Made by a program: the position numbers and the translations under genes | IMG/VR virus record: IMGVR_UViG_3300021389_001814 | Location: 4,467-68,466 of that record | DNA: 64,000 bases | Origin: a virus | Direction: 5' to 3' (one strand) | Shown here: positions 9,243-41,913 of the stretch, piece after piece | Layout: every line of letters begins with the position of its first letter | Numbering within the stretch: the first letter of the stretch is position 1 | The notes under the pieces: generated by a model | Database searches by the model: none | What the model saw: only the letters and a program-made list of their open reading frames with translations | What the model was told of the DNA's origin: nothing

Positions 9243-9539
9243 TTATATTTTTTTGTAAGTCATTATCCACGATTGAGTGGTTTCATCCCATTCGTAAATA
9301 TCCTCTTCGTCGGGGAGAGGTGTTGGCGAATCCCAATATTTGTTAGTTTCATTCCAAATCCAACTATCAAATGGTTTTGGTGGACGAAACCCTTCGGTTT
9401 CTGTGTGAGTGTATCCTACACTAACATCGTCATAATTATTATAAACAATCCAATGTCCATCCATATTGTTTACATAAGTGTCATCACAAACAATAGTATC
9501 AGTCACTATATTATTTTCTATTTTTGCCTCGTATCTCAT
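9243..9539 (-). CDS. Small fibre-associated/assembly protein
   Basis: FRPPKPFDSWIWNE...WDSPTPLP...YEWDETTQSW motif common downstream of Gly-rich phage fibre genes; ATGA overlap. Confidence 0.6.
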   Translation of the reverse strand: MRYEAKIENNIVTDTIVCDDTYVNNMDGHWIVYNNYDDVSVGYTHTETEGFRPPKPFDSWIWNETNKYWDSPTPLPDEEDIYEWDETTQSWIMTYKKI

Positions 9540-10288
9540 TTTTTATACCTTACGTAGACACCGCCACTGGCACCAGATAAAGAACCAGAAGCACGAGCAC
9601 CGCCGCTTCCAGAACCACTAATTCCGCCACCACTGCTTGCTCTACCTATTCCGGTTGCTCCCGTTCCGCCGCCAGCATAAGTATCATTTTGTCCTTTAAA
9701 ATTTACTAATAGCGGGGAACCTCCGGTTGGTTGTCCGCCATTGCTTCCTGCTCCCCCGCCGCCGCCGCCGCGACGTGAATTCCCATTAGAACTTCCTACG
9801 CCATTTCCTCCCCTATTTCCTTGTCCAGAAATACCAGAACCTCCAGTAAAAGCCAAAGATGTGGTGTAAGCAGCGCCGCCTCCGCCAGAACCTCCAGAGC
9901 TTCCAGAAGTCGTTGACCCGCCATTTCCTCCACCGCTTGATGTTAATCCATTAAATGAAGAAGAACCACCACTTCCGCCAACAGTTGTGTTATAAGTTCC
10001 AGAAGGCAATATTATGGGGTTTCCTATTGTATGCCGAACCCCGCCACCGCCGCCAGCGCCTGGAGCATATGTGTTACTTTGGCCAATGCTCCCTCCACGG
10101 CCTCCACCGCCTACGACCAAGTATTCCAAATCCGGATTATCTATATCGCCTTCTCGTATGATATTAATACTAGAAGAAGAAGAGAAACTGTGAACTTTGT
10201 ATATTACTCCATTTATATTATGTTCTGATATTGCTCCGCCCGTGGCAATATGCTTTGGTTTTGATGAAATAACACTACAAATTAACAT
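9536..10288 (-). CDS. Glycine-rich domain fibre tip/adhesin-like protein
   Basis: EYLVVGGGGRGG...GGGGGV...GGVYVRY Gly-rich domain; start reassigned to TAATG at 10288 (MLICSVISS). Confidence 0.7.
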   Translation of the reverse strand: MLICSVISSKPKHIATGGAISEHNINGVIYKVHSFSSSSSINIIREGDIDNPDLEYLVVGGGGRGGSIGQSNTYAPGAGGGGGVRHTIGNPIILPSGTYNTTVGGSGGSSSFNGLTSSGGGNGGSTTSGSSGGSGGGGAAYTTSLAFTGGSGISGQGNRGGNGVGSSNGNSRRGGGGGGAGSNGGQPTGGSPLLVNFKGQNDTYAGGGTGATGIGRASSGGGISGSGSGGARASGSLSGASGGVYVRYKK

Positions 10289-10755
10289 TATGCCAAATCT
10301 CCATATAGATACCATGTATTCGCGGCAAGCTTTGCAGCGGTTGCCATAGAATATTGAACCGCGAGTTGATTAGTTAATCCATTTCTTATCCTAACGGTCA
10401 CGCCCGCTTCGCTTCCTATCGTAACAGAGCCAGTTCCATCCCGTGTAAAGTGGACAACTGTTCCTATCGGAAAGTCCAAAGTTGTATCATTTGGAATAGT
10501 ATATGTGACTGTCGTAGAAGCAGTAGAAAACAGCATACTGTTTGAATCTGTTAGAATTAATGTTCTGCTGACGGATACTGGTATTATTCCACCAATCGGA
10601 GAACCATTGAGTCCATCTTGTCCTGCTGTCCCTATGCTGCCAGTGTATCCTAGACTCCCAAAAGAACCAGTATATCCGATTGCACCCTGAGAACCAGAAT
10701 AACCAGTATCTCCGATAAAATCGCTTCCTAATAAACTACTTAAACTTACTGCCAT
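10288..10755 (-). CDS. Short collagen-like fibre adaptor
   Basis: GYSGSQG/GYTGS triplets followed by a C-terminal domain ending WYLYGDLA. Confidence 0.7.
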   Translation of the reverse strand: MAVSLSSLLGSDFIGDTGYSGSQGAIGYTGSFGSLGYTGSIGTAGQDGLNGSPIGGIIPVSVSRTLILTDSNSMLFSTASTTVTYTIPNDTTLDFPIGTVVHFTRDGTGSVTIGSEAGVTVRIRNGLTNQLAVQYSMATAAKLAANTWYLYGDLA

Positions 10756-10767
10756 ATTTTTATCCTT

Positions 10768-13700
10768 TTATGCCTGTGATTCGCTCCAAGTAATTCTAGC
10801 ACTAGCATTGTATGGTGAATTTGCGCTAATATCACTTGTATCACTTACCCTTACCGCAACAGTAAGAAGGTCGGGGCCATTTGGGAAAACACCATCTCCA
10901 CCTAAAATACTATTACCCATGTCAGTAATTTCTCTCAAATCAAAGTTTGATGCTGCCGATAATCTTCTTCCGGTAGAATCCTCGGTTCCGCCAGATGCAC
11001 GGAAACTAAATATTTCAGTTCCACCAATAACAACATCGCCTTGTTGATGTGTTATAAGATTTGACAGAGATGGGTCTTGAACATTGCTAAATCCAATATT
11101 ACTTAGATTTCCGTTAAGTATTAGAGCAACCTCACTATCATGGGAAAGAACCATACCAACTTCGTTCAATTTAAGTTGCATTCTATTAATAATTTCTCTT
11201 TCTCCAAGATTTCCGGTAATACCGTTATCAACACTTGGCGCAAGTCTAATACTAATCAGTGGAATAGTAGATTTAGACAAATCAGTTCCATCTCCACCGC
11301 TTGCTGGTTGTCCAATACTGACAGCCGTTCCACTAGCAACAACAGGATAATTAGAAGGAGTATTAAACTGTGTTGTCAAGTATATATAAACACGATAGCT
11401 TGAACCACTGTATGTTGCGCTATCAACCACCTGTCCATTTAATTGTTCGTTAACGGTATATAACGATGTTCCGGTAGTAAATTTACTTGCATCCGATGAT
11501 GCAAAAGATAAACGAACATACCAATCGTATGACCTTTTGTCTCGGTTCCATTGTCTATCCAATACAGAATTAGCGTTTGTAGTTGCACTAAGTCCCTGAC
11601 CGTTAGTGAACGAAAGATTATTTGATGCTGCCGTGAACAAATATGCTTTATCGTCATTGAATGTTCCGTCCATGATGACTGATGTTCCCCAGTGGAATAG
11701 ATTTGGTACATATGTTGCGGTATCGGTATTTTCAATTTCATATCTTGCTGGAATGTTACCAGAACGCATATAAGCTTCTGTGAGTTTATTGTTGTGAACA
11801 AACTCATGAACATATTTGACGTGACCTTTTCTATCTTTGAAACCGAAACGAATTTTACCAGCACCATACCAGCTATAGTCCATATATGCCATCTGTATTT
11901 TTGTTACATCTAAATCAAATCCGCTAGGACCATTTCCGTCACATCTATCTAAATTCCATTCGCTTTGTGGAATTTTTGTGTCTACTGTTTTAGTAAGTAC
12001 AACTCCATTGGCAGACACACCTTTGTATGCTGGTTGAATAACTGCTTCTGTTCTACTTTTTATTTTTGTAACTTTATAGGTCTGACCTCTAATTACAATG
12101 GTTTCTCCCTGAGAAAGTTGTCCACTAAAGTTTGTTCCATTTCCTAACAATAAATTAGAATTATTGATCACAGTTCCGGTTCCGCTAACTTGTTGTGTTG
12201 AACTACGACGAACTGCGTATATTTGGCTACCATCGTATTCATAAAAGAAACCATTTTGGAAATCAAACATACCCGCACGAACAGCACTTCCAGTCCATCC
12301 ATTAATATTAAAAGATATTAGACCTCTTGGAATTGATGTTGTAGGAATAGATAACAATTCATACGTGAATACAAATTCATCTTGGACTGTATCTACTACA
12401 TAATCTCCATTATATTCCGTATCTAAACTGTCTCTAATGGTTACACTATTGTTAGTAGTCAATCCATGTGGGTATTTTGTTCTTACTGTTACAGTTGTTC
12501 CGTTTGAAAATATGTCTTCTACCAATATAGGAGGATTAAAGTTTATAGCTAGAGAAACTTGAATACCTTTACCCGACTGATAGCGGAAATATTTACGAGT
12601 TTGTCTAACGATTTGACTATAAGGACTTGTTCCAGCATTGATTTCAACACCGCCATCAAATGGCCTATGCAATGTTGCGCCATCTGGTCTGACATACAGT
12701 GCAGTAGGGACCATCAATTTAGTAGCAGCAGAAGTAAAGCTAGGCGCTTCTGTTAATACCATTTCCACATCGTCAACAACAGTAGACACTGTAAATTCTT
12801 CTAGTCTTCCTGGGGTCGTTCCATCATTTACTATTAATATCTTATCTCCAGATTTATAATATGTTTTAAAAATGCTGCCAGTATCCCCAATTATAGTTTT
12901 TGAATTTTCAGTAACACTTATATCTTCTGGGACAGGAATGAGACCGTTTACAGATTCTGATGAAAATACGTGTATTTCACCAGAAGTTACACTAGCCCAA
13001 TCAATTAATATAAAAGAATTTACAAGTATGTCATCCGGCGATGCTGCAATTCTTATATAATTTGGGTCTTCAACAAATGCATAATATGTAGTATTATCAA
13101 CTAGGCCAGGCAAATCGGCATTTCCGTTATTACTGTAAATTATTGGAGTGTAATTAGCAAGGTTATGATAACTAGGAAAATAGAAATGGTCGGTTACGGT
13201 TTGGTCATCAACCACAATTCCTACCCGTTTCGAATCTGCTCTGAAGGGTAATTCAAATGTCATAGTAGTTTCGTTAGGAACATCGGTAACAGCATACACA
13301 CCATCAGCAGTTCCATATTGATTTCCAACATCTTGGAATATAATTGTTTCTGTTCCGCTGTTGGTCAGATTCAATTCAGTTCCTATATCATTTTTCAATC
13401 TAAATCTATTATTCGAAATAACATCTACATTATATTCGCCAAGCAAATCAAGGGACGGGTATGAGTAATCGCTCGCTAGTCTTTCTAGTATTCTGGTATC
13501 CAAATTACCGATATATGTACTGTCAATATTTATTGCATCTGGAACCCTAAGTGCAACAACTACATTCACATAGTCAGTCATAGAACCATATAAGAATGTA
13601 TAATGGTTGTTTGTACCACGGGTAGATACGGGTTTATTAAATGTTCCGCTATCCCATGCATTTTTTCTAAGAACTATATTGTAAAATAAGAAACTATCTC

Positions 13701-16317
13701 TTCCTGTGGTCTGAAAATATTGAGCAGTTCTTGCATAACGAATATCAGTAGTAACTGCTCCTTCTGTTGTATAAACTGCAGGATTTACCGTTCCTGCAAA
13801 CTGATTTAATATCCCAGATGCATAATTAGAATTCACAACAAAATACATTCTAGTGTCATGTGCGATATTTTCCGGACCAATTATTAATGTGCTAAAATAT
13901 GGAATAGTTTTGTCAACCACATAAGATTCTCCAATTATTTTGAATCCCCTTCCTTGCATTCCTAATCCTGTTCCCAAATCTTCAACATTTCCTGTAAACA
14001 TATTAGAAAAGTTTGTAGCATTGTTTAAACTATAAGCTCCATATTGAGAGCTAACATATCCTTCAAGATACGCATAATTTATGGTGCTGGAGGTTTCCAT
14101 TCCAGTATTAAAAATTTGCCTAGCATTTGGTCCATTCATATACATATCTGTATATGTCTGGCTTGTTGCTGTTTCCGATTCTGCTATAAAATCTTCTATC
14201 CCGCTATTAATAATTTGATAAAGTGTTTCAACATCAGAATCCGATGCAGTATATGTAATGTCACCAGTTTCGGCAGTTGGGAGAACACCCAAAGCTTCAA
14301 CATCTATTTTTAGTCTACTATCATTTGACAGACCATGATTTTCTATATAAAAACTGTTTTTAGTTTGTTTTTCAACTATAGCAGTTAAATCATACACCCC
14401 AGAAGCATCATGAACTCTATATGCAGTGGAACCGCTTTTTATTCTGAATCTATCATTTGAAACTATTTCTATGGTGTCTACAGAAGAATCCGTTATATTT
14501 ACAGGATTGTAAACTGACGTATAATTGTTAACAACTGTGGTCGAACGTGTTGGGGTATTTCCGCTAGTGGTTGCCCAAGCAATGCTCTGGCCATCTTCAA
14601 GTCCATGATCTTGTATGTAAAACGTATCACGTTCTGTATCATAATTTAGAGGAATAAAGAACATTTCTCCGCGACCGAAATTATAGGTTCCGTTAGACCA
14701 ATAATAAGACAGGTTTCTGTACAAATAAGTAGTAGCAAAAGACACATTATTCGCTCTAAATGTATCTTGGCCTGTATAACGAGTTATATCTTCAATGAAA
14801 TTAAATGTATTTGGCGAAGCACCGTTATCAGGTATTGTCATGTCTGCGTCATAACGAGGACTGTAATATGGTTTGTTCCAAACAACATCGTAGCTGCTAG
14901 TTCCATACCAAGCAGTATTAGTGCCTTTAAAAAATAGAGGAAGGAAATCTGGCCTTGATCTCATTTTTCCGTAGCCATTGGCTCTCAAATCCCATCCTGA
15001 TCCTGATCCAAAGCGATGCCCTGGTGTTCTCCAATATTCATTATAACGCCTATACACAGAGTCTGCATTACTTATTTCATATGCAATCATGAATTGTCCG
15101 CGACCAAAATTGTAGGTTCCGGCTGAAGTGATTGTTATAGGACTTCCGTTAAATGTTGCTTTTAATTGAAAATCGTCAGTTGTTGGATTTGTGATATAAT
15201 ATACATCAAAACTCGATAACCCACCAATTGAAGTATCTCCTGCGGGCTTTATATATAAAACACAATCGTCTTCCCTAAATTCGTGGCCTTCCCAAAGTAT
15301 TCTATCGTTTGCCACATCTACGTCAGCGGCAAGTATCTTTTTACTATAAGCGCCAACCAGTTGTTTCGTTTCGGTAAGGCTACCATTTACTGATTGTGTA
15401 TCAGATACCGTATCTTGTGGGTCAACATAAGGTTCGCCATCGGGCGCATTGCTTGTGGTAACATCGTCCAAAACAAGTGTTCTGGGGCTTACTGTATTAA
15501 GAAGATAAAAGCTTGATCCTGCCTTAAACCCATGTTCATATGGTGTAGTGATAGTAATAGTAGATGGTGTCAGTGTATCGGTTGTCATTCCGTTTTCTTC
15601 TGCATAAGCAACTCTACTACCCGTATAAAATTCACCAGGTATAATGGTAGTATAAGGCCCGCTTATTGTTGCTACCCGAGATTGTAGTTTTCTTGCTTTA
15701 TAAGTGAAACTAAAGTCGTCTACGATACTACTAACTAGATATTTTCCTTCTGCAGTATTGGAATCCAATCCATTAACATCAATTGGCGAACCTTTAGACA
15801 ATCCATGCGGCTGATTGAAATCTACACGAATAACATCAGAACCATTTATAGAAGAAACTTTTTGAAGACCAATAATAGATTGTCCAGTAGAATAAAAACT
15901 AGGAACATTGTTTAGTAATTCAAGTGTTTCCCATTTTGAATTTTGCAGGCCATATTCAAAATCGGTGTCAATTAGGTTTTCTGGATTACTGACTCGAATT
16001 TTACTAACTGGGTCAATAAAAGATTCACTAAATTCAACTTCTTGATGATCGTGGTCAATAAAGATTTGCAAATGGTCGGTGTCTTGTGCACCAAGTGCTA
16101 CTACATCTGCAACTAGGTTAATTATAGTATATTCGTTATCATCATGTGTTATGCTGTTGTAACCAAAATTTGGGTCACCAAAATTATAGATTACTTTATT
16201 TATGGTGACATCTGTTATTAATAGAAATTTTTCAGGAAATATTTTTTCCTTAATAGTAATAGTTCCATTAGCAGTGTCAAAAGTATAATTGTCTATAAAA
16301 AGTTTTCTCTTAGCCAT
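10768..16317 (-). CDS. Large virion structural protein (1849 aa)
   Basis: Multiple HGL/HGF beta repeats; RKYFRYQSGK, DGNGPSG and WYGAG motifs shared with 47524 and 50897. Confidence 0.75.
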   Translation of the reverse strand: MAKRKLFIDNYTFDTANGTITIKEKIFPEKFLLITDVTINKVIYNFGDPNFGYNSITHDDNEYTIINLVADVVALGAQDTDHLQIFIDHDHQEVEFSESFIDPVSKIRVSNPENLIDTDFEYGLQNSKWETLELLNNVPSFYSTGQSIIGLQKVSSINGSDVIRVDFNQPHGLSKGSPIDVNGLDSNTAEGKYLVSSIVDDFSFTYKARKLQSRVATISGPYTTIIPGEFYTGSRVAYAEENGMTTDTLTPSTITITTPYEHGFKAGSSFYLLNTVSPRTLVLDDVTTSNAPDGEPYVDPQDTVSDTQSVNGSLTETKQLVGAYSKKILAADVDVANDRILWEGHEFREDDCVLYIKPAGDTSIGGLSSFDVYYITNPTTDDFQLKATFNGSPITITSAGTYNFGRGQFMIAYEISNADSVYRRYNEYWRTPGHRFGSGSGWDLRANGYGKMRSRPDFLPLFFKGTNTAWYGTSSYDVVWNKPYYSPRYDADMTIPDNGASPNTFNFIEDITRYTGQDTFRANNVSFATTYLYRNLSYYWSNGTYNFGRGEMFFIPLNYDTERDTFYIQDHGLEDGQSIAWATTSGNTPTRSTTVVNNYTSVYNPVNITDSSVDTIEIVSNDRFRIKSGSTAYRVHDASGVYDLTAIVEKQTKNSFYIENHGLSNDSRLKIDVEALGVLPTAETGDITYTASDSDVETLYQIINSGIEDFIAESETATSQTYTDMYMNGPNARQIFNTGMETSSTINYAYLEGYVSSQYGAYSLNNATNFSNMFTGNVEDLGTGLGMQGRGFKIIGESYVVDKTIPYFSTLIIGPENIAHDTRMYFVVNSNYASGILNQFAGTVNPAVYTTEGAVTTDIRYARTAQYFQTTGRDSFLFYNIVLRKNAWDSGTFNKPVSTRGTNNHYTFLYGSMTDYVNVVVALRVPDAINIDSTYIGNLDTRILERLASDYSYPSLDLLGEYNVDVISNNRFRLKNDIGTELNLTNSGTETIIFQDVGNQYGTADGVYAVTDVPNETTMTFELPFRADSKRVGIVVDDQTVTDHFYFPSYHNLANYTPIIYSNNGNADLPGLVDNTTYYAFVEDPNYIRIAASPDDILVNSFILIDWASVTSGEIHVFSSESVNGLIPVPEDISVTENSKTIIGDTGSIFKTYYKSGDKILIVNDGTTPGRLEEFTVSTVVDDVEMVLTEAPSFTSAATKLMVPTALYVRPDGATLHRPFDGGVEINAGTSPYSQIVRQTRKYFRYQSGKGIQVSLAINFNPPILVEDIFSNGTTVTVRTKYPHGLTTNNSVTIRDSLDTEYNGDYVVDTVQDEFVFTYELLSIPTTSIPRGLISFNINGWTGSAVRAGMFDFQNGFFYEYDGSQIYAVRRSSTQQVSGTGTVINNSNLLLGNGTNFSGQLSQGETIVIRGQTYKVTKIKSRTEAVIQPAYKGVSANGVVLTKTVDTKIPQSEWNLDRCDGNGPSGFDLDVTKIQMAYMDYSWYGAGKIRFGFKDRKGHVKYVHEFVHNNKLTEAYMRSGNIPARYEIENTDTATYVPNLFHWGTSVIMDGTFNDDKAYLFTAASNNLSFTNGQGLSATTNANSVLDRQWNRDKRSYDWYVRLSFASSDASKFTTGTSLYTVNEQLNGQVVDSATYSGSSYRVYIYLTTQFNTPSNYPVVASGTAVSIGQPASGGDGTDLSKSTIPLISIRLAPSVDNGITGNLGEREIINRMQLKLNEVGMVLSHDSEVALILNGNLSNIGFSNVQDPSLSNLITHQQGDVVIGGTEIFSFRASGGTEDSTGRRLSAASNFDLREITDMGNSILGGDGVFPNGPDLLTVAVRVSDTSDISANSPYNASARITWSESQA

Positions 16318-16326: not shown

Positions 16327-16575
16327 TTATGATAGCGCGATTGCAAAAGCAATTGCACTTGTGTCCGTTTTTGCTTCCCATTTTTCGGTTTCAGCATTAT
16401 ATATTAGAGATGCACCATCCGTGAGTCCTGTGGTATCTATATTATCAGAACTATCTTCTAGGTCTTCCCTTAAACTCCATCTTTGCCCATCCCAAACCCA
16501 CGTATTACTATCTACAGTATATGTAAAACTTCCATCGGTTGGTTGTCCAGTTGTATCAGGAAAACTTAGTGCCAT
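16327..16575 (-). CDS. Small fibre linker protein
   Basis: N-terminal MALSFP...WVWDGQRW motif; C-terminal AIAFAIALS; GGAG RBS and late promoter upstream. Confidence 0.7.
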   Translation of the reverse strand: MALSFPDTTGQPTDGSFTYTVDSNTWVWDGQRWSLREDLEDSSDNIDTTGLTDGASLIYNAETEKWEAKTDTSAIAFAIALS

Positions 16576-16602: not shown

Positions 16603-17982
16603 TTATCCAAAAAGAATACTCATTGCAACACTGAACCCACGATTCCCACTAGCCGCACTTCCAGTATAACCAACTGAACCTACGTTTGTTATGACTTGCC
16701 ATATTGAACCATCATATACAAATTCAGCTTTACTTTGTCCTATATCTAAAAGCAAATCGTCATTTATTATGTCTTCAATTTGATTTCCGTTTCTTCCAAC
16801 CGTGAGTGGATTTGTGGACCAATCACCGCCATCTGCAATCATGACAAAATCTCCCACACTAGGAGATGGTGGAAGATTTATAGTAAAAGAACCACCAGTA
16901 GTGTCTGCAATTATACCATCTTTATTCTGCGAAGTTATTCCGTCATCGGTTACTGTGTATACTTTCCAATTATATACCTGACCAATGCTTCCGTTATAAC
17001 CACGACTTCCTGCATATCCGGATATTCCAAGACTTCCGGTATATCCACGAATGCCTTGCGGTCCGGTTGCACCCAACCAAGTTCCGTCATAATAAACATT
17101 CAAACTTGCATCATTTGAATTGAACCACAAATATCCGTTTGTTAAGTTTGGGTTAATTGGTGCGGTATCTGTTACTTGTGCACTAAATCCACGGCTACCA
17201 CTATATCCGGTGCTTCCGGTATAACCTATTCCTTTACTTCCTGTATATCCTAGTTCGCCTTTTGGTCCAATTGGTCCACTGACAACTACCCATTGACTTG
17301 TATCACCATCATCATAATATACTTTTAATGTTCCGTCTTCGGTGTCAAACCACATTTGACCATTAACTGGAGTAAGTGGTGGTGAATTTAGTGTTTCAGT
17401 TACGGTTCCGTCATCGCCACGACTTCCGGTAAATCCCAAGTCTCCTTGCGATCCACGGCTTCCAGTATAACCAAATTCTCCACGACTACCAAGATACCCA
17501 CGAGAACCAGCGTATCCAACATTTCCCTGAATGCCTTGCGAACCTATAAAACCTGTGTCACCTCTGCTGCCAGTGAAACCTATGCTTCCGGTGTATCCTA
17601 GTGTTCCTCGTGAACCTATAAAACCAGTAATACCACGACTGCCCGTGTATCCTGCCCCAGTGCTTCCAGTATATCCTAGTATTCCTTGTGAACCTATAAA
17701 CCCAGTAATACCACGGCTACCAGTGTACCCTGCACCTGCTGGACCTTGTAATCCACGACTGCCAGTATATCCTAAAACACCTTGACTGCCAGTATACCCA
17801 TCCCCTGTTCCAAAAGATATACTACCAAGAAATCCTAATCCTACAAAATTTCCATCACTGTCTATAACAAGTTTTGAATTAACTTTGAGACTATTAATAT
17901 CTAATGATGGTGAAGATATTTTTAAATCTTCACCATCATTTGTTTCAATTTCGTTAGTAGGATGTTTTATATTAATTGCCAT
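16603..17982 (-). CDS. Collagen-like fibre protein
   Basis: GYTGS triplets, two WFxxxD...YYDG knob domains, one IADTTGGSFTINLP...YDGSIWQV domain, ends VAMSILFG. Confidence 0.8.
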   Translation of the reverse strand: MAINIKHPTNEIETNDGEDLKISSPSLDINSLKVNSKLVIDSDGNFVGLGFLGSISFGTGDGYTGSQGVLGYTGSRGLQGPAGAGYTGSRGITGFIGSQGILGYTGSTGAGYTGSRGITGFIGSRGTLGYTGSIGFTGSRGDTGFIGSQGIQGNVGYAGSRGYLGSRGEFGYTGSRGSQGDLGFTGSRGDDGTVTETLNSPPLTPVNGQMWFDTEDGTLKVYYDDGDTSQWVVVSGPIGPKGELGYTGSKGIGYTGSTGYSGSRGFSAQVTDTAPINPNLTNGYLWFNSNDASLNVYYDGTWLGATGPQGIRGYTGSLGISGYAGSRGYNGSIGQVYNWKVYTVTDDGITSQNKDGIIADTTGGSFTINLPPSPSVGDFVMIADGGDWSTNPLTVGRNGNQIEDIINDDLLLDIGQSKAEFVYDGSIWQVITNVGSVGYTGSAASGNRGFSVAMSILFG

Positions 17983-17987: not shown

Positions 17988-17995
17988 TATTTATA
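17988..17995 (-). promoter_or_regulatory. Late promoter, possibly giving a leaderless mRNA
   Basis: TATAAATA 5 nt before the ATG at 17982; no RBS. Confidence 0.5.
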
Positions 17996-18440
17996 TTGGC
18001 TTAACAGGCCACTCTACTGTTTCTGGAAATCCTTGTTGATCGGTTATATCACGCAATGCTTGGCGATATTCTGCCATTTCTGCTGCTAGTGTAACGTCGC
18101 TTAAAGCAAGATAATCAGTTTCTGACAACAATTGATTTCTTTGACTTCTTATACTATTGGCTTTTACTTCTATCCATTCCGCAATTTCAGTTTGAGTTTT
18201 TTCAACTACGTTCCAAATTTTAGTCCAGTTTCCACTTTCATCTTGAACAAACCCACCGTCTTTTAATTTTTGTGTTTTTTTATCATAAGTTGGCTGTTCT
18301 TGTTGTATATATGGATACACATCAAATCTTGCTAATATCTCATTTGATATTGTTTTTGGAAATGATACGTTTTTATTATCACGGCGCAATTTTCCGATTG
18401 TATAAATTTCGGGTTCACCGTTTGTTAGTTTGATATACAT
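17991..18440 (-). CDS. Tail fibre assembly chaperone-like protein
   Basis: IRSQRNQLLSETDY...YRQALRDIT.Q.GFP...WPVKP C-terminus. Confidence 0.75.
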   Translation of the reverse strand: MYIKLTNGEPEIYTIGKLRRDNKNVSFPKTISNEILARFDVYPYIQQEQPTYDKKTQKLKDGGFVQDESGNWTKIWNVVEKTQTEIAEWIEVKANSIRSQRNQLLSETDYLALSDVTLAAEMAEYRQALRDITDQQGFPETVEWPVKPI

Positions 18441-18441
18441 T

Positions 18442-19754: not shown

Positions 19755-19778
19755 ATGTGTTTCTCCAGATATAAGTAT

Positions 19779-32200: not shown

Positions 32201-32211
32201 CGTTTATTCCT

Positions 32212-33803: not shown

Positions 33804-35489
33804 TTATCCTAAGTCGCCAGTTAATACCCATTCATTCTCGTCAATTTTTGTAACACGAATAACACTGTATTGACCAGATGTTCTTGGAGTTGTTCCACTT
33901 TTTCTATAAATGGTAACGCCGCTTGCGCCGCTCACTGTAATAGTTGCGCTGTTAAATTGCATTATATGAAATGTTGTTCCAACTGAAAATTGAGTATTTG
34001 TATAATTTGGGATGGTCACAGTTGTTGGATTAATAGTATTGAAAGCAAAAATCTTACCGTTATCGCCCACTTGTGGTGTTAATGACGTTGCATTGGTTTT
34101 TTCACTTTGCGTGATATAATTCCCAGGAACACCTTGCGGACCCTGTTTTCCACTGACAACTACCCATTGACTTGTATCACCATCATTATAATAAACACTT
34201 AATGTTGCATCATCTGGGTCAAACCACAATTTTCCTACAATTTCTTCTGGTGTAGTTGTAATATCTGTCAGTGTTCCTGTGAGACCGCGAGAACCAGTAA
34301 ATCCGGTATCACCGTCGTTTCCAGTAGAACCAGTAAATCCGATAGAACCGGACTCTCCGACCGGACCCTGCGGTCCACTCGTTACAACCCACTGCGGACT
34401 ACCATCTCCATCATCATAATATACGCTCAATGTTCCATCAGTAGTATCAAACCACATATGTCCTGTGAGAACAGATTTTGATTCTGTTGGGTCTGTTTCG
34501 CCAACGTCTGCGCGAAAACCTTGAGAACCACTATATCCTAAGCTTCCATTAAATCCACGAATACCGCTAGAACCAACAAACCCTACATCACCTTTGTTTG
34601 CAACTTGCTGCCAAGTTGACCCATCATAGAAAAATTCTATTCTACTATTTGAAACATTTGCATTATACGTTTGCGATGCTCCTTCTATGAGTTCGCCAGT
34701 ACCAGCGTCTATAGTTAAAGGATTGAGTCCCCAATTTGCACCATCCATAAATGTAACAACATCGCCAAATTCTGGCGGATTAGGAAGATTTACAGTAAAA
34801 GAACCACCGCTAGTATTTGCAATTATTGCTTGTAAGTCATTTGAATTATATCCACCATTTGCTACTGTTAGGTAAATCCAATCAGCGAATCCACCTTTTG
34901 CACCTGTATCTCCTTTTTTGCCAATGTTTGTTAATATTTGCCAGGTGTCTCCGTCATAAATAAATTCTACTCTAATTCCAGTAATGTTTAAAGTAAAATT
35001 ATCTGCAAGTCCTTCTATTGTTTCTAATGAAATTAGATTTCTAGACACAGTTAATGGATTTAATTCCCAATCAGCACCATCTGTTATTTCTACAATTGAA
35101 CCAACTGTTGGCGATTGTGGAAGATATAACGTAAATGATCCACCGCTGGTGTCTGCAATAATTGCTTCTAAATTTTCCATTTGATAGTCTGAAGTTTTTA
35201 AACTCCAGTTCATAGCACCACGAGAACCAGTGTATCCTATTATTCCCTGACTTCCAGTATATCCTTGTGAACCATTAAAACCTCGACTTCCAGTATATCC
35301 CTGACTACCAGTCCATCCTTGGCTACCCGTAAATCCTTGGCTACCTGTAAATCCTTGAATTCCTTGACTGCCTGTATATCCACGTGATCCAGTATATGCA
35401 CGAGAACCAGTATAGCCAATTATACCCTGTGAGCCTGTGAAGCCAACAAAACTAGTTCCCAAAAAATCACTAACATTAATAGTTGCCAT
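33804..35489 (-). CDS. Collagen-like fibre protein
   Basis: GxTGSQ repeats, two IA(D/N)TSGGSF domains, two WFD knob domains, ends WVLTGDLG. Confidence 0.8.
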   Translation of the reverse strand: MATINVSDFLGTSFVGFTGSQGIIGYTGSRAYTGSRGYTGSQGIQGFTGSQGFTGSQGWTGSQGYTGSRGFNGSQGYTGSQGIIGYTGSRGAMNWSLKTSDYQMENLEAIIADTSGGSFTLYLPQSPTVGSIVEITDGADWELNPLTVSRNLISLETIEGLADNFTLNITGIRVEFIYDGDTWQILTNIGKKGDTGAKGGFADWIYLTVANGGYNSNDLQAIIANTSGGSFTVNLPNPPEFGDVVTFMDGANWGLNPLTIDAGTGELIEGASQTYNANVSNSRIEFFYDGSTWQQVANKGDVGFVGSSGIRGFNGSLGYSGSQGFRADVGETDPTESKSVLTGHMWFDTTDGTLSVYYDDGDGSPQWVVTSGPQGPVGESGSIGFTGSTGNDGDTGFTGSRGLTGTLTDITTTPEEIVGKLWFDPDDATLSVYYNDGDTSQWVVVSGKQGPQGVPGNYITQSEKTNATSLTPQVGDNGKIFAFNTINPTTVTIPNYTNTQFSVGTTFHIMQFNSATITVSGASGVTIYRKSGTTPRTSGQYSVIRVTKIDENEWVLTGDLG

Positions 35490-35519: not shown

Positions 35520-36248
35520 TCATTCTATAATTATCCAAAATGCTATCTGTATTGTTGGGTCACTTCCGCTAACACCATACACCGTATTAATAGGATCATT
35601 ATTTGGGCCATTCCAAATTTTATACTGACTTGCGACATAATCAAAATTACTATGATCAACAACCTGATCCGAACTTGGATTTGAAGTTGCAGCAAATGTT
35701 GTACTATTTGTATAAAAATAATGAAAAGAAATAGCACCCTGATCTGGATTAATAGTTGGTGAATTTATAGATATATTAGTATTAGTTGAGTTCGAAAAAT
35801 CATAATTTCCATAAAAAACGTCCGTTATAGTATTTCCGTCCAAGTTCCTAAAAATATATAGCTGATCATAATCATTTACAGTCGGAGAACTAATAAAACT
35901 TATATTAGTTCCTCGATCTGAAATTTCAAATTTTTTAAATGATGCAGCAATTCTATAGGCACTAAAAGAATAATCACCGACCAATGTCCACCCAGGCTGT
36001 GTTCCAAAAACAACATTTACGGCTGACATTTCTAGCAATATTCCAAAATGTGTATCATCTACATAATTTGGTATAGCCCCGCCTGTGTCATTTGTAAAAC
36101 TTATGATCTCAACGAGTTCAATTTGAATGGGTGGTGCGAATCCATAAACAAGTTCGCTACCATAATAAACCCTATCTGCTAGTGAATTTCCTACATATAA
36201 ATCATCTGGATATGTGTTTCCAAATCTAAATTTTGTAACTTCTGCCAT
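35520..36248 (-). CDS. Putative fibre tip protein
   Basis: N-terminal LYVGNSLADRVYYGSELVY motif; directly follows the collagen gene. Confidence 0.55.
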   Translation of the reverse strand: MAEVTKFRFGNTYPDDLYVGNSLADRVYYGSELVYGFAPPIQIELVEIISFTNDTGGAIPNYVDDTHFGILLEMSAVNVVFGTQPGWTLVGDYSFSAYRIAASFKKFEISDRGTNISFISSPTVNDYDQLYIFRNLDGNTITDVFYGNYDFSNSTNTNISINSPTINPDQGAISFHYFYTNSTTFAATSNPSSDQVVDHSNFDYVASQYKIWNGPNNDPINTVYGVSGSDPTIQIAFWIIIE

Positions 36249-36253: not shown

Positions 36254-38371
36254 TTATCCCGATACTATATATAATATATTTGCCGATGGGGTCAACGCAT
36301 CGTATTCTGTTTGTGTAACAATTCTTATATCACTAATATCAGTAGTAAGTTGTCCTTTACTTCCAGTATATCCAGATTCGCCCTTTTCACCAATGTTCGA
36401 AACTAGTTGCCATGTTGTACCGTCATAAACGAAGTCATTTCTAGATTCACCAATATCAAAAACGAAATCTAATTCTAATCCTTCAATGGTTTCCAGTGAT
36501 ACTGGATTTCTTGCAACAGTTAGAGGATTATCGCTCCAATTTGCACCATCAATGAAAAGAACAGCATCACCGTCGTTTGGTGTTTCTGGCAAATAAACAG
36601 TAAAAGAACCTCCGCTTGTATTTGCAATAATACCTTCAATGTTATTAGTAACATAACCATCGTCCGTTACATCCAAGTATGACCAATTTGCAAATCCACC
36701 ATCATTGCCTCTTGATCCAGTATATCCTATACTTCCCGTGTATCCGTCTACACCGTCTACACCATCAGAACCTGCAACACCTTGACTACCAACGAACCCA
36801 ACGCTTCCCGTGTATCCTATACTTCCGGTGTATCCTATACTTCCCACAAATCCAGTATCACCTTGAATACCTTGGGAACCTATAAAACCTGTGTCGCCTT
36901 TACTACCAGTGTAACCTATGCTACCAGTATACCCATCACGTCCAATTATACCATCTAGCCCACGGGAACCAGTGTACCCCAGTTCGCCTCGCGAACCCGT
37001 GTATCCTTCACCGCTTGAACCAGTATATCCCAATTCGCCCTGAATACCTTGGCTACCAGAAAATCCCGTATCTCCGCGACTACCAGTATAACCTTGGCTA
37101 CCTGTAAATCCTAAATCACCGCTTGAACCAGTATAACCTACGCTACCTATAAATCCATCAACACCGTCTGTTCCAGAAGACCCTCGTGAACCAGTGTATC
37201 CTATACTTCCTGTATATCCTATACTTCCTGTGAAACCAACAGCGCCGAAATCACCAGAATCACCCTTTTCGCCTCGTGAACCAGTATAGCCGATACTTCC
37301 TGAAAATCCGGTTTCACCCTGAATTCCTTGTACGCCCTGAGAACCAGCAAATCCGGTATCGCCTTTGCTACCAGTATAACCTACGCTACCAGTATATCCT
37401 ATAGAACCAGCTTCACCCGACAAACCTTGGCTACCAGTGAAACCTATGCTTCCTGTGTATCCTAGTTCACCCTGAATACCACGACTACCAGCAAATCCAA
37501 CGGTTCCTCTTGAACCAGTATAGCCAACACTACCAGCAAATCCTGTTTCGCCTTGGATACCATGGCTACCTGTAAAACCAATACTACCAGTATAACCAAC
37601 ACTACCAGTATATCCCAATGTTCCCCTAGAACCTACAAATCCAGAAATACCTTGGCTACCAGTATATCCGATAGAGCCAGTGTATCCCAATTCACCTTGC
37701 AGACCCTGAGTACCAGTACTACCAGCATATCCGGCTTCACCTTTGCTACCAGTATAACCAACACTGCCAGTATATCCTATTTCACCCTGAGTTCCTTGAC
37801 TGCCAACAAATCCAACAATACCTTGTGATCCGGTGTATCCAATGCTGCCAGTATATCCTAGTTGACCTTGATCACCTTGAATACCACGACTACCACTATA
37901 TCCAGTTGCACCTTGGCTACCAGAGTAGCCGACACTGCCAGTATATCCCTGACTTCCGGTATAGCCTATAAATCTACCAGCATCTTGCCATTGTGTTCCA
38001 TTCCAAATATAAATGTGTTCATCGGATGCAACAATATAGGCATCGCCAATTGTATTTCCAGTAGCTGGCAAATCCCCAACAGTTGGCAATACATCTAAAA
38101 CAAACAATCCTTTGCCTTGTGAACCAGTATATCCGATAGAACCAGTGAATCCTAAATCGCCGCGCGAACCAGCAAATCCTCGTGAACCCGTATATCCAGT
38201 TGCATCAATCCAATACCTGCTTCCATCCAAATCGCCAGCAAGTATTTTTCCATCACCAGATGGTAAACCTAAATCCGGTTCTGCATTGTCGAGACTAAGA
38301 AACTCATAGCGTTCTGGATCAGCTTCTGCACTCGGCGTTTTTCTTATTCTATCAGATAATAGCTTTGACAT
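36254..38371 (-). CDS. Long collagen-like fibre protein
   Basis: About 420 aa of near-continuous G-x-x (GYTGS) repeat; ends VTQTEYDALTPSANILYIVSG. Confidence 0.85.
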   Translation of the reverse strand: MSKLLSDRIRKTPSAEADPERYEFLSLDNAEPDLGLPSGDGKILAGDLDGSRYWIDATGYTGSRGFAGSRGDLGFTGSIGYTGSQGKGLFVLDVLPTVGDLPATGNTIGDAYIVASDEHIYIWNGTQWQDAGRFIGYTGSQGYTGSVGYSGSQGATGYSGSRGIQGDQGQLGYTGSIGYTGSQGIVGFVGSQGTQGEIGYTGSVGYTGSKGEAGYAGSTGTQGLQGELGYTGSIGYTGSQGISGFVGSRGTLGYTGSVGYTGSIGFTGSHGIQGETGFAGSVGYTGSRGTVGFAGSRGIQGELGYTGSIGFTGSQGLSGEAGSIGYTGSVGYTGSKGDTGFAGSQGVQGIQGETGFSGSIGYTGSRGEKGDSGDFGAVGFTGSIGYTGSIGYTGSRGSSGTDGVDGFIGSVGYTGSSGDLGFTGSQGYTGSRGDTGFSGSQGIQGELGYTGSSGEGYTGSRGELGYTGSRGLDGIIGRDGYTGSIGYTGSKGDTGFIGSQGIQGDTGFVGSIGYTGSIGYTGSVGFVGSQGVAGSDGVDGVDGYTGSIGYTGSRGNDGGFANWSYLDVTDDGYVTNNIEGIIANTSGGSFTVYLPETPNDGDAVLFIDGANWSDNPLTVARNPVSLETIEGLELDFVFDIGESRNDFVYDGTTWQLVSNIGEKGESGYTGSKGQLTTDISDIRIVTQTEYDALTPSANILYIVSG

Positions 38372-38373: not shown

Positions 38374-38838
38374 TTATTCTACTCCGATGTGTTCGTTAGT
38401 TGCTTTTTCTTCCGCTGATGACCATACATTAAATATATTGTCAACTTCTGCGCGAACTTGAATTCTATCTCCATTGGCACTGTTTGCATCTCTTTTAAAA
38501 ATACTTCTACCTTGTAGTGGAATAAACGCAGTATCTTCTTTTGGCACATAAACTTTTGCCATTTCAATAATTGTTCCATCTTCTTTTACAAGTTGAACTT
38601 CTATCCATCTTGTTACTGTGTCTTTGTTTTTCGCAGCAAGTGGCGTTAAAAAGAAAATTTCACCGGGCCTAATTGCACGGGTAGTATCAAGTGGGTCTCT
38701 TGTTGCGTAACGATTTGATGTATCTGGTATAGAAAAATCGGAAGATTCTGCTATAGTGACATAATCTGTAGTTACTGTATTTGATGTAACGCTGATTGGT
38801 CGTCCAGTAGATGGTGTGCGGCACGTAATTCTAGCCAT
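38374..38838 (-). CDS. Small virion connector protein (distant paralogue of 24167)
   Basis: VYVPKEDTAFI...GDRIQVRA...VWSSAEE resembles ITVPANSTLI...DDLLQGIA...VCSYEI. Confidence 0.55.
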   Translation of the reverse strand: MARITCRTPSTGRPISVTSNTVTTDYVTIAESSDFSIPDTSNRYATRDPLDTTRAIRPGEIFFLTPLAAKNKDTVTRWIEVQLVKEDGTIIEMAKVYVPKEDTAFIPLQGRSIFKRDANSANGDRIQVRAEVDNIFNVWSSAEEKATNEHIGVE

Positions 38839-38840
38839 AA

Positions 38841-41384
38841 TTAAAAACTCCTTGCAATTGCTGCTCTAGTTGCAATTCTGTTAACTGCGGTATCAAACGG
38901 CGGTCCGCTAAGTTCACCAGTATCTGCATTTATTTCCATTCCGCCAATAAATAATGCGGAACCTTTGTCGTCTTGTCCACTAGCAATAACTTGTCCACGA
39001 TCCAATTCTAGAATACTTTCTTGTATTGTGTTTTGGTTATTAACTGGTGGTATTTTTGTAAGCGCAACACCAGCCATAATACCAGTCCAAGTGTGGCCTA
39101 TTGCGGTAATCGTAGAAGGCTCACTTTGTTTAGTTGGATTCATTATTGTTTTTGTTATTGCGTTTATTGTTTCATTTATAATATCTGCTGTATCTGGGCC
39201 GGTATTTATATCTACAGATATTATTGAAATTATCTGATCTCTCATATATTCCCAAGAATATATGAATGCACCCAATAGTGTTTTGTTTTCTACATTTATG
39301 TATCGTAGAACATCGTTGGTAATATCATTAGTATTGTTTATAATAAGATCGTATGAATCTTTGTAATCTGCGCTTACCCAATCTGTTGCAGGCAATAGTT
39401 TGACTGGTGGTGTTCCGTCGCTACTTATTGTTCCAATTATATCATCAATTCTTGATAGTACAAAGGCCACGCCATCCCCAGTTACGGCATCTGCTGTGAA
39501 ATATCCAGAAATTATATTTTTCAACTCACTGTATGCTGCGAGTGTTGCTGCCTTCTCGCCTGTTCCTAACTGAGACTGGGTTCCGACGAAATATGCAATT
39601 GCGGCATTGTAAGTTTCAAGATTTCCACCATATGTCAAATCATAAGTAATTGCATCTATAATATAACCAACATCTCGTCTACAAGCGACTGCATCATAAG
39701 TGAAAGACGTAGTGAATGGAGATATATTTCCACTTATTTGGGCTGCAATCCAAGTATCCAAATCATCTTGAATTTCTGTTTTGTTTGTGGTTAACGAGAC
39801 TCTTGCATCCCCGTATCCAATCAGATAGGTATTATTATATCCAGTCGGATAAGAATACGCATATGGGTCTGCTGCAGTTGTTCCATTTTGTATTATATCT
39901 AATAATTCCGTAAATAGTGCATTTGATCTTGAAAGCGAAACAGAGTCGCTAGGATTTATATAAGATTCCAATACTTGTTGCTGTCGTGTTATTGCTTGAA
40001 TGGTAACATCTAATTGATCATTAACTACTTTGCTTGCATTTTGTCTATAATACGCCAATCCTGCATTTATTGTTCTAACATTACTGTCGAACATAATGTC
40101 ATAGGCAATTGCCTGATTGATCAATAGAGTGTCACGATAGCATTTATCATAATCATATGACGCTTCTACAAACGCCCTGTTTCCAGTTGTATCAAAAAAT
40201 CCTTTGGCAAAATCTTTTACAGGAGTTTCATCAGCAGTTTGCAACATCCACACCAATGATTGAATAAACAATCCGGCATCTCTCTCTGTTAAAGTTTCAT
40301 AGTCAGATGGCCAATCTGTGGTGAAACTATTATTATTTAAATCAGTTATTAATCCTGATATTATCAAGTCGGTTGCGGTGTTTATTAGCTGCGCAGAACT
40401 TTCGTCAACGGTTAAAGAAACTGTGGCGCTTACATTATATGGAACAATTAAATCTCTTGTCCCTTTTGCCACAAGAGTATAATCTCCGAATTGTGTTGAA
40501 CATGCTGAAAGAATAATTTGACCACCATCAATGGCATAAAAATGTTTATGCGCCCATAGACTTATAGCATTAACTGCGTTTATTAGTGCGCCATTTTTTG
40601 CACAATATCCGATACCATTGTGTGATACTGGTGTTGCTCCCCACGTCATAATGTTTGGGAATATGCTATCTGGGTCCAATACCGAGGCATCTGCGAGAAC
40701 AACCCCGCCACCACGACCAGCCAATGGATTTCCATTTTCTCTATCAAGCGGAGGTGCAATTGTAGTCCAATATGGCACAGTTCTGACTGCAATTTTATGC
40801 GCATAAGGAACTCTTGTTATTTTTGCGCCTGGTCTGAACACAACAGCAAATCCTTCGGTCGGATTTTCTAAATCGTCTAATCTCCAATTTTCAAAAATTA
40901 TACCTTCTAAAAAGCAACCAGAACCAAGTCTAAAAACATTTCTTTCTTCAAACCCTGAAATCGGCCTTACAAATACACTCCGGTGGACTGCTTGAATAAC
41001 TGTGTTATCTGGAACATCTAGGTGTCCTTCTGTTTCATATATGCCAGGGCCAATTTTTATAAGAGTTAACCCATTTCTAAGTTCTGCGGCCAATAATGCG
41101 GCTTCTATGGTTCCAAAAGCAGCACCCCATGTGTCACCATCGTTTGAATCGCTTCCTAATTTTTGAACATATATTGTATTTTCTACTGGACCAGATGAGG
41201 GGAATTCTACTATTTCTTCTTCTGTTACAGTTTGCTGAATTTCGGTATCAAAATATTCTTTAAATGTTTTTAAAAATATTTTTCCATCATAGGTATTAAC
41301 TGCGAATTCACCCAATTCCAAATCACTTAATAGTGGAATTTTACCGTTTACACCAGATTGTTTTTGAATTATTTGTGATGACAT
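38841..41384 (-). CDS. Virion structural/tailspike-like protein (beta-helix plus helical CxRD repeats)
   Basis: LELGEFAVNTYDGKIF N-terminal motif, YVQKLGSDSNDG...IKIGPGIY pectin-lyase-type cap, KCYRD/ACRRD repeats. Confidence 0.7.
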   Translation of the reverse strand: MSSQIIQKQSGVNGKIPLLSDLELGEFAVNTYDGKIFLKTFKEYFDTEIQQTVTEEEIVEFPSSGPVENTIYVQKLGSDSNDGDTWGAAFGTIEAALLAAELRNGLTLIKIGPGIYETEGHLDVPDNTVIQAVHRSVFVRPISGFEERNVFRLGSGCFLEGIIFENWRLDDLENPTEGFAVVFRPGAKITRVPYAHKIAVRTVPYWTTIAPPLDRENGNPLAGRGGGVVLADASVLDPDSIFPNIMTWGATPVSHNGIGYCAKNGALINAVNAISLWAHKHFYAIDGGQIILSACSTQFGDYTLVAKGTRDLIVPYNVSATVSLTVDESSAQLINTATDLIISGLITDLNNNSFTTDWPSDYETLTERDAGLFIQSLVWMLQTADETPVKDFAKGFFDTTGNRAFVEASYDYDKCYRDTLLINQAIAYDIMFDSNVRTINAGLAYYRQNASKVVNDQLDVTIQAITRQQQVLESYINPSDSVSLSRSNALFTELLDIIQNGTTAADPYAYSYPTGYNNTYLIGYGDARVSLTTNKTEIQDDLDTWIAAQISGNISPFTTSFTYDAVACRRDVGYIIDAITYDLTYGGNLETYNAAIAYFVGTQSQLGTGEKAATLAAYSELKNIISGYFTADAVTGDGVAFVLSRIDDIIGTISSDGTPPVKLLPATDWVSADYKDSYDLIINNTNDITNDVLRYINVENKTLLGAFIYSWEYMRDQIISIISVDINTGPDTADIINETINAITKTIMNPTKQSEPSTITAIGHTWTGIMAGVALTKIPPVNNQNTIQESILELDRGQVIASGQDDKGSALFIGGMEINADTGELSGPPFDTAVNRIATRAAIARSF

Positions 41385-41416
41385 ACTTCTTTATCCTATT
41401 ATATTGATGTTTATAG

Positions 41417-41424
41417 TATTTATA
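41417..41424 (-). promoter_or_regulatory. T4-type late promoter
   Basis: TATAAATA upstream of 41384. Confidence 0.6.
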
Positions 41425-41427
41425 CTA

Positions 41428-41913
41428 TTAATATGTTCCGCCTTCTATTCTTCCTTCAAACAGTGTGGCAGTCACGGTTCCGTCAACATCTATTTCACTT
41501 TGTGGGTCTATTTTATTAAATCCTACATAACCAGTATCGCTATCAACAAAAACAGATGCGTTTGTTATACTATTTCCAGTAAAAGTTGGATTCATATAAT
41601 ATCCACTGTTTGTAAATGATGCAGTTATGCTTCCAGCATTATAAACGTTTATCACGTCTTCTGTGCCATCATTTTCTATTTTTACACCAGTATCTAAATC
41701 ATCATTTAATATGAAATTACCAATTGGCATCCAATTTGTTTCATCTTTTACTTCAAACACGCCCTTTTCACTATTATACCTCATTGAACCAACGTATTCG
41801 CTTGCGCGTTCAGCAGTATTACCAACAGGCAATACAATATTACCAGTCATAGAGTATTCAACTTCGTTTGTTTTTGAAACAATCTGATTTATTTGATATG
41901 TTACTAATGACAT
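41428..41913 (-). CDS. Small fibre protein
   Basis: LPVGNTAER...GSMRYNSE...FE fibre motif, GYVGFNKIDP..EIDVDG, ends IEGGTY. Confidence 0.7.
   Translation of the reverse strand: MSLVTYQINQIVSKTNEVEYSMTGNIVLPVGNTAERASEYVGSMRYNSEKGVFEVKDETNWMPIGNFILNDDLDTGVKIENDGTEDVINVYNAGSITASFTNSGYYMNPTFTGNSITNASVFVDSDTGYVGFNKIDPQSEIDVDGTVTATLFEGRIEGGTY

Follow-up and report, generated by a model that had tools for sequence, protein, structure and literature searches.

Paired gene ends and gene starts as probable halves of modular fibre joints in the tail-fibre super-locus of a cyanophage-like virus

This analysis concerns a window of 64,000 nucleotides (the whole stretch of DNA that was analysed), corresponding to positions 4,467 to 68,466 of the IMG/VR viral record IMGVR_UViG_3300021389_001814. 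Positions 9243-41913 of this window hold, on the minus strand, the tail-fibre super-locus of a cyanophage-like and probably jumbo virus, in which particular gene ends are followed by particular gene starts. We consider it probable (about 0.6) that these recurring motifs are the two halves of modular protein fibre joints, carried by a super-locus made of mobile cassettes. An initial annotation had proposed that gene order in this locus encodes the assembly order of several multi-subunit fibres with exchangeable tips; all the ends and starts that it quoted are present in the window.

The principal pair joins the 524-residue fibre gene 24599-26173, whose last 12 residues (GKAIAMTIVFGG, 24602-24637) form a hydrophobic tail (hereafter, the plug), to gene 24167-24538, which encodes a 123-residue protein (hereafter, the adaptor). 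A tblastn search with the adaptor retrieved five distinct isolated phages. In four of them (S-SKS1, DSL-LC04, the pelagiphage HTVC033P and Bellamy), the gene directly upstream of the adaptor ends in ..GKAIAM(A/S)(I/M)(I/V)FG or a close variant (C-terminal motifs are quoted up to the stop codon) and the downstream gene has a start of G-G-I-I-G type, while S-CBWM1, the weakest of the five matches, shows an unrelated context without plug. Relatives of the adaptor are numerous in IMG/VR, where at least 572 of 600 pattern matches were confirmed. Among 80 loci kept from this set, 77 have an upstream open reading frame (ORF), which ends in a tail of the same type (hereafter, xFG) in 68 cases (67 by regular expression plus one variant); the G-G-I-I-G type start is found in 41 of 75 genes located downstream of the adaptor. 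The linkage also holds in the opposite direction: when the exact plug peptide was sought in any codons and 80 loci were read, the motif lay 0 to 1 residue before the stop codon in all of them and the next gene encoded an adaptor in 77 (69 by regular expression and eight N-terminal variants by eye).

The upstream proteins can be aligned over their last ~13 residues only and, once the tail is removed, the plug-bearing bodies fall into at least 14 clusters of 68 to 1261 residues. Furthermore, the third codon positions of the plug vary freely, with all four Gly codons, all Ala codons and all Ile codons in use and near-invariant residues; therefore, the constraint bears on the protein and not on a DNA linker. 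Parts on either side of the joints are thus exchangeable, as initially claimed for the tips: these bodies upstream and, downstream, the genes found after another fibre end, the GDLA-type domain described below (32 clusters).

A second tail dialect was found upstream of another partner. The 82-residue gene 16327-16575 ends in ..AIAFAIALS and precedes a 1849-residue structural protein (10768-16317; hereafter, the giant protein). Three isolated phages carrying a homologue of the giant protein were examined; the upstream gene ends in ..YAVAYAIALGG or ..VVAFSIALG in two of them and not in S-RIM32. Eighty IMG/VR loci were also selected on the giant protein, 77 of them with an upstream ORF. Tails of this second type (hereafter, IALG) precede the giant protein in 40 of these 77 loci and the adaptor in none of 77, whereas xFG tails precede the adaptor in 68 and the giant protein in only four, where they are of a distinct ..PLNxMF type (Fisher p = 3e-26, uncorrected for the relatedness of the loci). 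A rule devoid of any motif (last nine residues without charged, amide or Pro residues; mean hydropathy of at least 1.2) retains 66 of the 77 genes upstream of the adaptor and 44 of the 77 genes upstream of the giant protein compared to 29 of 861 other ORFs of the same loci, about a dozen of these 29 being further true plugs. Applied to the 149 ORFs of the window, it retains exactly the three real plug genes and four antisense artefacts.

The reverse search for this dialect, with AIA(F/Y)AIA(L/F)G in metagenomes, gave 80 loci that were read, the match being terminal in 64 and internal in 16. Among the 59 terminal matches with a next ORF, this ORF matched the adaptor profile in 32 cases, belonged to the same small-protein cluster in six, matched the profile of the giant protein N-terminus in 17 and was something else in four; a sister adaptor or a member of the giant family thus follows in 55 of 59. 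The small proteins found after IALG tails group as sisters to the adaptor proteins within one family (hhalign probability 97.4, E 1e-11), and they start with MA(N/S)xFKN.. and not with MAAPNIVNV, the invariant start of the adaptor. Therefore, the N-terminal peptide of the adaptor changes with the tail dialect. No similarity between the adaptor and the N-terminal domain of the giant protein was detected by hhalign. Most of the complete IALG-plug genes are short (44 of 60 encode at most 150 residues), and the N-termini of these short genes are of classic fibre types (QVQFRRGT, which is Mtd_N-like by eye, VIKDRIKE and MALNFP); they look like two-ended linkers. In two metagenomic loci (L440 and L469), AIAFAIALG is followed by a longer protein starting with M(S/A)KP(A/T)TRA(Q/T)FK.YCLR.LGFPVI.I, which may be a third kind of plug partner.

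The AlphaFold2 model of the adaptor, built from a 27-sequence alignment, is an all-beta sandwich with a predicted jelly-roll fold (predicted local distance difference test, pLDDT, 90.9) in which the first ~8 residues, corresponding to the invariant MAAPNIVNV, are unstructured. Its best match among solved structures is to the Ena endospore-appendage subunits of Bacillus (7a02, 9i0y; Ena1B at Z 9.5, root-mean-square deviation 2.9 over 101 residues, 13% identity), Ena being one among many matches at Z 8-9 that are generic oligomeric jelly-rolls; the others include a trimeric phage cement protein, virus turret proteins, nucleoplasmin cores and the needle knobs of Sf6 and HS1. Many look-alikes of ~105-120 residues were found among predicted viral structures (template modelling score, TM, 0.75-0.92), some of which are named virion structural protein by their sources (MaMV-DC, S-TIM5, S-SCSM1). 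By sequence, the adaptor family has no Pfam or PHROG match, its Atlas clusters are all unnamed, and neither the adaptor nor the GDLA-type domain has a match in the PDB. The search for the adaptor among longer proteins gave four matches: in one, ..MSNGGIIGP.. links the adaptor to a Gly_rich_2 tip, two are fusions with LamG-type tips, and one (P0003, 225 residues) carries a domain of ~100 residues inserted in a loop. These rare adaptor-tip fusions suggest that the adaptor and its tip function together.

Taken together, these data suggest the following architecture. Each cassette would encode a shaft, then a joint, then one or several distal parts and finally an assembly chaperone. The plug is a hydrophobic tail of ~11 residues that closes a shaft, often collagen-like and probably trimeric; one dialect reads ..GKAIAMAIVFG(G) and the other ..A(I/V)A(F/Y)(A/S)IALG. 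The socket would be encoded by the following gene. It would be either the N-terminal domain of the giant structural protein or the small jelly-roll adaptor, whose unstructured invariant N-terminal peptide is MAAPNIVNV or MA(N/S)xFKN depending on the tail dialect. The hydrophobic C-terminal strand of the trimeric shaft would dock on this socket, and the adaptor would in turn hold the tip proteins through their common short N-terminal motif. From the gene context, the adaptor-tip fusions and the analogy with known systems, we infer that plug and socket are in contact, that the adaptor is part of the virion and that gene order follows the proximal-to-distal order of the fibre. A broader reading, which is possible and which we hold only tentatively, is that the tail and the adaptor (or giant N-terminal domain) form a portable, dialect-specific connector that mounts interchangeable receptor-binding modules, with the tail dialect pairing with the adaptor N-terminal peptide, in unrelated myo-, sipho- and podo-like phages, marine and freshwater.

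Several observations weigh against the joint reading. Nine of the 77 adaptor genes are preceded by something else, often a chaperone-like gene, three of the 80 plugs are followed by a different gene, and 33 of the 77 genes located before the giant protein fit neither dialect, although many of these are hydrophobic variants by eye. The loci are related (at 70% identity the adaptors group into 13 clusters, a plug being present upstream in 11 of these, and at 60% into only three); therefore, the counts and the Fisher p overstate independence. The adaptor fusions belong to clusters with a single or a few members and could be assembly errors, and the name virion structural protein given to the look-alikes comes from annotations and not from experiments. 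Finally, the window itself contains an orphan xFG plug: gene 16603-17982 ends in ..SVAMSILFG, a fourth hydrophobic end absent from the initial annotation, and it is followed by the 82-residue IALG linker and not by an adaptor gene. Since the window holds one adaptor gene only, this orphan plug may use it in trans or may be vestigial.

Besides the plugs, other end/start pairs were followed beyond the window, with various outcomes. In a first pair (a1), ..RIEGGTY is followed after 43 nucleotides by MSSQIIQKQSG; in a second one (a2), ..NINCGGVS is joined through TAATG to MAFIQFQFRRGT. Both ends had been considered as one type preceding Mtd_N-like starts. However, the proteins encoded upstream are not related to each other (E=0.25), and only the start of 24599-26173 is a Pfam Mtd_N domain (PF18454, residues 7-44, 59 bits versus a cutoff of 26.3). 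The first 60 residues of 38841-41384 match no Pfam family at E<=5 and cannot be aligned by BLASTP with the genuine Mtd_N start, which rules out this assignment. Pair a1 is kept in a related contig of 318 kb (G001) as ..KIDGGTY before MSSQIIQKQS. Close relatives of the start of pair a2, MAFIQFQFRRG, were examined in 10 loci: in four (three distinct sequences) they are preceded by ..(I/L)DCG(G/S)V(S/T/L) after a conserved motif of ~25 residues, and in six they are not. This pair, as ..DCGGVS before MAFIQFQFRRG, and the hydrophobic-tail pairs confirm that specific ends precede specific starts beyond the window.

The hydrophobic ends AIAMTIVFGG, AAIARSF and AIAFAIALS had been grouped together, the first two being described as preceding paralogous small connectors. 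All three are present, but no similarity between the two connectors (24167-24538 and 38374-38838) is detectable (BLASTP E=0.36), so that their paralogy is not supported. Both are modelled as small beta-sandwiches with common weak PDB matches (4n8m, 1xe0, 3rwn, 4k6b, 7vrn and 4dmi); the model of the 154-residue connector has a pLDDT of 77.7 and its invariant start, MARITCRTPSTG, is predicted to be disordered. In the 34 loci (13 distinct contexts) with relatives of this connector, the upstream gene always ends in a ..NRIATRAAIARSF-type motif (pair b2). In the 13 contexts, the downstream start is M.K.LSDR..KTP(S/P) in 10 and a diverged form in two, the last one having no called ORF. Within this lineage, the succession of ..RAAIARSF, MARITCRTPSTG and an M.KLLSDR..KTPS start is therefore conserved. 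However, the relatives are close (58-77% identity) and pairs b2 and a1 are lineage-conserved cassettes and not independent recurrences.

The GD(LA/VA/GS) ends correspond to the last residues of a homologous C-terminal domain of ~95 residues. They had been presented as TAATG-coupled to unrelated tip proteins, and TAATG does follow three of them (at 10288, 19203 and 20825), the fourth GD end (..GDLG, 33804-35489) being uncoupled. TAATG occurs at six of the 29 junctions of the window, three of which follow the four GD ends (hypergeometric p ~0.02 by hand arithmetic). The loci carrying this domain were scanned with a six-sequence alignment; the alignment of the four window copies was too divergent, and a scan with a single protein found one locus. 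In each of the 80 loci examined, and also in Gordonia, Sinorhizobium and Achromobacter phages, the domain is the last part of the protein, and the 75 downstream proteins form the 32 clusters mentioned above. However, junctions of at most 5 nucleotides are as frequent after this domain (44 of 80) as among all the junctions of the same loci (159 of 313), and coupling was therefore rejected as a signal. Neighbourhood statistics place the recurrence of both hydrophobic-tail pairs and of pairs a2 and b2 far above background, but not the coupling after GD ends. In loci L337, L383 and L385, some GDLA-type ends are followed by an adaptor-sized protein (~110 residues) starting with MPT(T/I)YKVLGQSAP...

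Another pair (d), whose motifs are present as described, links the end of 36254-38371, a Pfam Phage_tail_C domain (PF24243, residues 681-703, 26.4 bits versus 23.7), to the 242-residue protein 35520-36248, which has no relatives in viral contigs or phage records. A motif search of all the loci collected gave a Phage_tail_C-like end in one further locus (L384), where the next gene has an unrelated start, and pair d is a single occurrence. Five genes start with M(A/P)(I/L)(N/S)FP... (at 33792, 32200, 30907, 21730 and 16575), and three with M..(I/S)(N/L)..(F/L)L(G/N)...G.TG(S/Y). Both families of starts come after unrelated upstream ends, the five MAINFP-type starts being preceded by five different kinds of gene end. 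Therefore, the grammar consists of a handful of specific joints and not of a rule for the whole locus, and a universal grammar is not supported.

The pairs could also reflect linked inheritance only: cassettes would travel together, the tail being kept for shaft folding or trimer registration, and neighbours would not need to touch. All pairs lie in loci with some homologous flanks, b2 and a1 are confined to one lineage, and the tight spacing of genes equals the background. Nevertheless, we find this explanation doubtful, since the plug is found on at least 14 unrelated bodies while its downstream partner is constant, since the tail dialect changes with the N-terminal peptide or the type of the partner, and since a fixed neighbour in 77 of 80 loci would be needless for a folding nucleus.

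Genes for fibre chaperones usually come right behind fibre genes, and the locus has PF16778 chaperone genes. The jelly-roll protein could thus be an assembly chaperone that stays outside the virion, masking the hydrophobic tail while folding proceeds and leaving it afterwards, and nucleoplasmin-type chaperone cores are found among its fold matches. This role is quite unlikely: cassette B (detailed below) already closes with a Phage_tail_APC chaperone, two tip genes separate this chaperone from the adaptor, adaptor-tip fusions exist, and sources name fold relatives as virion structural proteins. As for a DNA-level recombination linker used for module swapping and devoid of any protein role, conserved stretches do lie exactly at gene boundaries between differing modules, but the free codon usage of near-invariant residues and a plug-adaptor spacer ranging from 1 to 38 nucleotides make it scarcely credible.

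In phage T4, the long tail fibre genes 34-35-36-37 and the chaperone genes 57A/38 follow a proximal-to-distal order, with a small hinge protein between shafts. The present locus likewise encodes several fibre subunits, presumably in such an order, and then a chaperone gene. However, the PHROG match to phrog_972 (tail fiber protein proximal subunit) is only local, no gp35 or gp36 homologues were found, and the joints described here are portable between unrelated phage types. The three genes passing the cutoff of Pfam PF16778 (Phage_tail_APC) are known biology and explain only the claim that tip genes are followed by chaperone-like genes. This claim stands for the three genes, which close cassettes, but not for 9243-9539, a 98-residue gene without Phage_tail_APC match at E<=5 and whose only match is phrog_7759, of unknown function. 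Bacillus Ena subunits and the adaptor are both jelly-rolls with a flexible N-terminal connector peptide, which in Ena engages neighbours; this is an analogy only, with 13% identity and an adaptor peptide devoid of cysteines. As regards a donor-strand type of joint (Ena, chaperone-usher pili), in which a terminal strand of one subunit completes or docks on the beta-sandwich of its neighbour, the observation is the fold resemblance of the adaptor to Ena1B. Like Mtd of Bordetella phage BPP-1, 24599-26173 starts with Mtd_N, its remainder being a collagen-like shaft and the plug.

The closest parallels are the anchor-branch receptor-binding systems (K1-5 gp37 adapter, G7C gp63.1/gp66, Klebsiella phages; PMC6872550, PMC13352976). 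According to PMC6872550, modular fibres or spikes are mounted there on short conserved terminal peptides (7-29 residues) and carry exchangeable enzymatic or binding parts. Docking by a conserved peptide, exchangeable parts and a possible separate adapter are common to both. Typical of these systems is a distal protein that starts with a short conserved peptide, and such starts are also found here (MAAPNIVNV, MARITCRTPSTG and the G-G-I-I-G type start). However, the anchor-branch docking peptide is the N-terminus of the secondary protein and its socket is T4gp10-like, whereas here the proximal protein carries the peptide, as a hydrophobic tail at its C-terminus, and the partner is either a giant protein or a jelly-roll of ~120 residues that has an invariant N-terminal peptide itself. 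Among the Pfam or PHROG matches of the window proteins there is no T4gp10-like family, although no profile-profile search with T4 gp10 was made. By analogy, the joints would best be read as variations on known modular receptor-binding systems, with different parts and the opposite terminus. Four literal motif strings gave no match in the papers searched, a search that would miss papers describing the family without printing the letters, and looking for published virion proteomics of S-SKS1 brought up nothing relevant.

The IMG/VR record is 68,466 bases long and rated 19% complete, and the window covers most of it. Close relatives of one window gene are carried by viral contigs of 201-382 kb; therefore, the source phage is probably a jumbo phage. 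In a tblastn search with the 1849-residue protein, Synechococcus phages account for 127 of 169 records, while at the nucleotide level a 12 kb piece of the locus has no megablast match among phage records. All real genes from 41913 down to 9243 are on the minus strand. Pfam searches over the locus found collagen repeats in five fibre genes, Mtd_N in one gene, Phage_tail_C in one, Gly_rich_2 in two and Phage_tail_APC in three, and most long genes match PHROGs annotated as tail fibre or virion structural protein. The three Phage_tail_APC genes divide the locus, each closing one cassette. Paralogy is heavy (all-against-all BLASTP), 16603-17982 and 24599-26173 sharing 56% identity over 449 residues. 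Gene starts were corrected to coupled ATGs (26173 and not TTG 26191; 20825 and 10288 and not the upstream TTG/ATG). The locus is organised as follows.

Cassette A, 41913-26771, minus strand
41428..41913, minus strand: 161-residue protein ending in ..RIEGGTY, first gene of the locus; phrog_6005 and others over its N-terminal part
38841..41384, minus strand: 847-residue fibre/spike protein, start MSSQIIQKQSG, end ..NRIATRAAIARSF; phrog_17885 tail fiber, E 2.4e-21
38374..38838, minus strand: 154-residue small beta-sandwich connector (predicted model), invariant N-terminal peptide MARITCRTPSTG
36254..38371, minus strand: 705-residue collagen-like fibre, conserved start MSKLLSDRIRKTPS, Phage_tail_C end (Pfam)
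35520..36248, minus strand: 242-residue orphan after the Phage_tail_C end
33804..35489, minus strand: 561-residue collagen-like fibre with a GDLA-type domain end (..GDLG)
27269..33792, minus strand: three genes with MAINFP-type starts (526, 422 and 1212 residues), beta-propeller-like repeats and Gly_rich_2
26771..27244, minus strand: tail-fibre assembly chaperone Phage_tail_APC, closing cassette A (65.7 bits versus a cutoff of 26.6)
Cassette B, 26708-21761, minus strand
26472-26708, minus strand: 78-residue very acidic protein (end ..DEFLDEDGEQED) opening cassette B; no Pfam or PHROG family match
26173..26466, minus strand: 97-residue protein ending in ..YDAGTPYTDFSVGFNINCGGVS, TAATG-coupled to the next gene
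24599..26173, minus strand: 524-residue Mtd_N and collagen-like fibre, plug at its end
24167..24538, minus strand: 123-residue jelly-roll adaptor (predicted model), invariant N-terminal peptide MAAPNIVNV
22183..24167, minus strand: two tip genes (407 and 254 residues) with G-G-I-x-G / GVW N-terminal motifs
21761..22186, minus strand: Phage_tail_APC chaperone, closing cassette B (31.2 bits versus 26.6)
Cassette C, 21730-17991, minus strand
17991..21730, minus strand: GDVA-ended fibre (301 residues), beta-propeller-like protein (348 residues), GDGS-ended fibre (183 residues), 253-residue gene and Phage_tail_APC chaperone (17991-18440, 66.4 bits versus a Pfam cutoff of 26.6)
Cassette D, last stretch, 17982-9243, minus strand
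16603..17982, minus strand: 459-residue paralogue of the 24599-26173 fibre, ending in ..SVAMSILFG; orphan plug, no adaptor gene next
16327..16575, minus strand: 82-residue two-ended linker (putative), MALSFP start and ..AIAFAIALS plug
10768..16317, minus strand: 1849-residue virion structural protein, conserved N-terminal domain MAKRKL..NYTFD; phrog_5838, E 2.4e-187
9243..10755, minus strand: conserved trio of a GDLA-ended fibre (155 residues), a TAATG-coupled Gly_rich_2 gene (250 residues) and a 98-residue gene, also found in G001

The gene order of cassette B (plug-ended shaft, adaptor, two tips, chaperone) is matched in S-SKS1, and the N-terminus of its chaperone resembles S-SKS1 SWZG_00006 by eye. 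In G001, the fibre locus spans ~15 kb. It begins with the same genes and also contains MPLNFP-type genes, a single chaperone and the GDLA/Gly-rich/98-residue trio. It lacks the plug-adaptor cassette (B), cassette C and the giant protein and keeps the other joints. Directly after the fibre locus of the window (5208-9178) are a 2-oxoglutarate (2OG)-Fe(II) oxygenase gene and a gene for a 1132-residue protein with glycosyltransferase and methyltransferase domains. The G001 fibre locus is also followed by a 2OG-Fe(II) oxygenase and a glycosyltransferase/methyltransferase protein, and a 2OG-Fe(II) oxygenase adjoins the plug-adaptor cassette in DSL-LC04, HTVC033P and Bellamy. These proteins may modify fibre proteins. 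At the upstream edge of the fibre locus, a 746-residue plus-strand ORF (41973-44213) diverges from it.

The host range of environmental phages is set by their fibres, whose architecture is not yet readable from sequence. With a short terminal motif from which the following subunit can be predicted, annotators could rebuild multi-protein fibres in uncultured cyanophages and pelagiphages. The joint reading would also name, and give a testable role to, a large family now annotated as hypothetical protein, and the finding marks natural break-points for module exchange. If the broader reading of a portable, dialect-specific connector is true, fibre architecture and the permitted pairings of tips and shafts could be readable from sequence alone.

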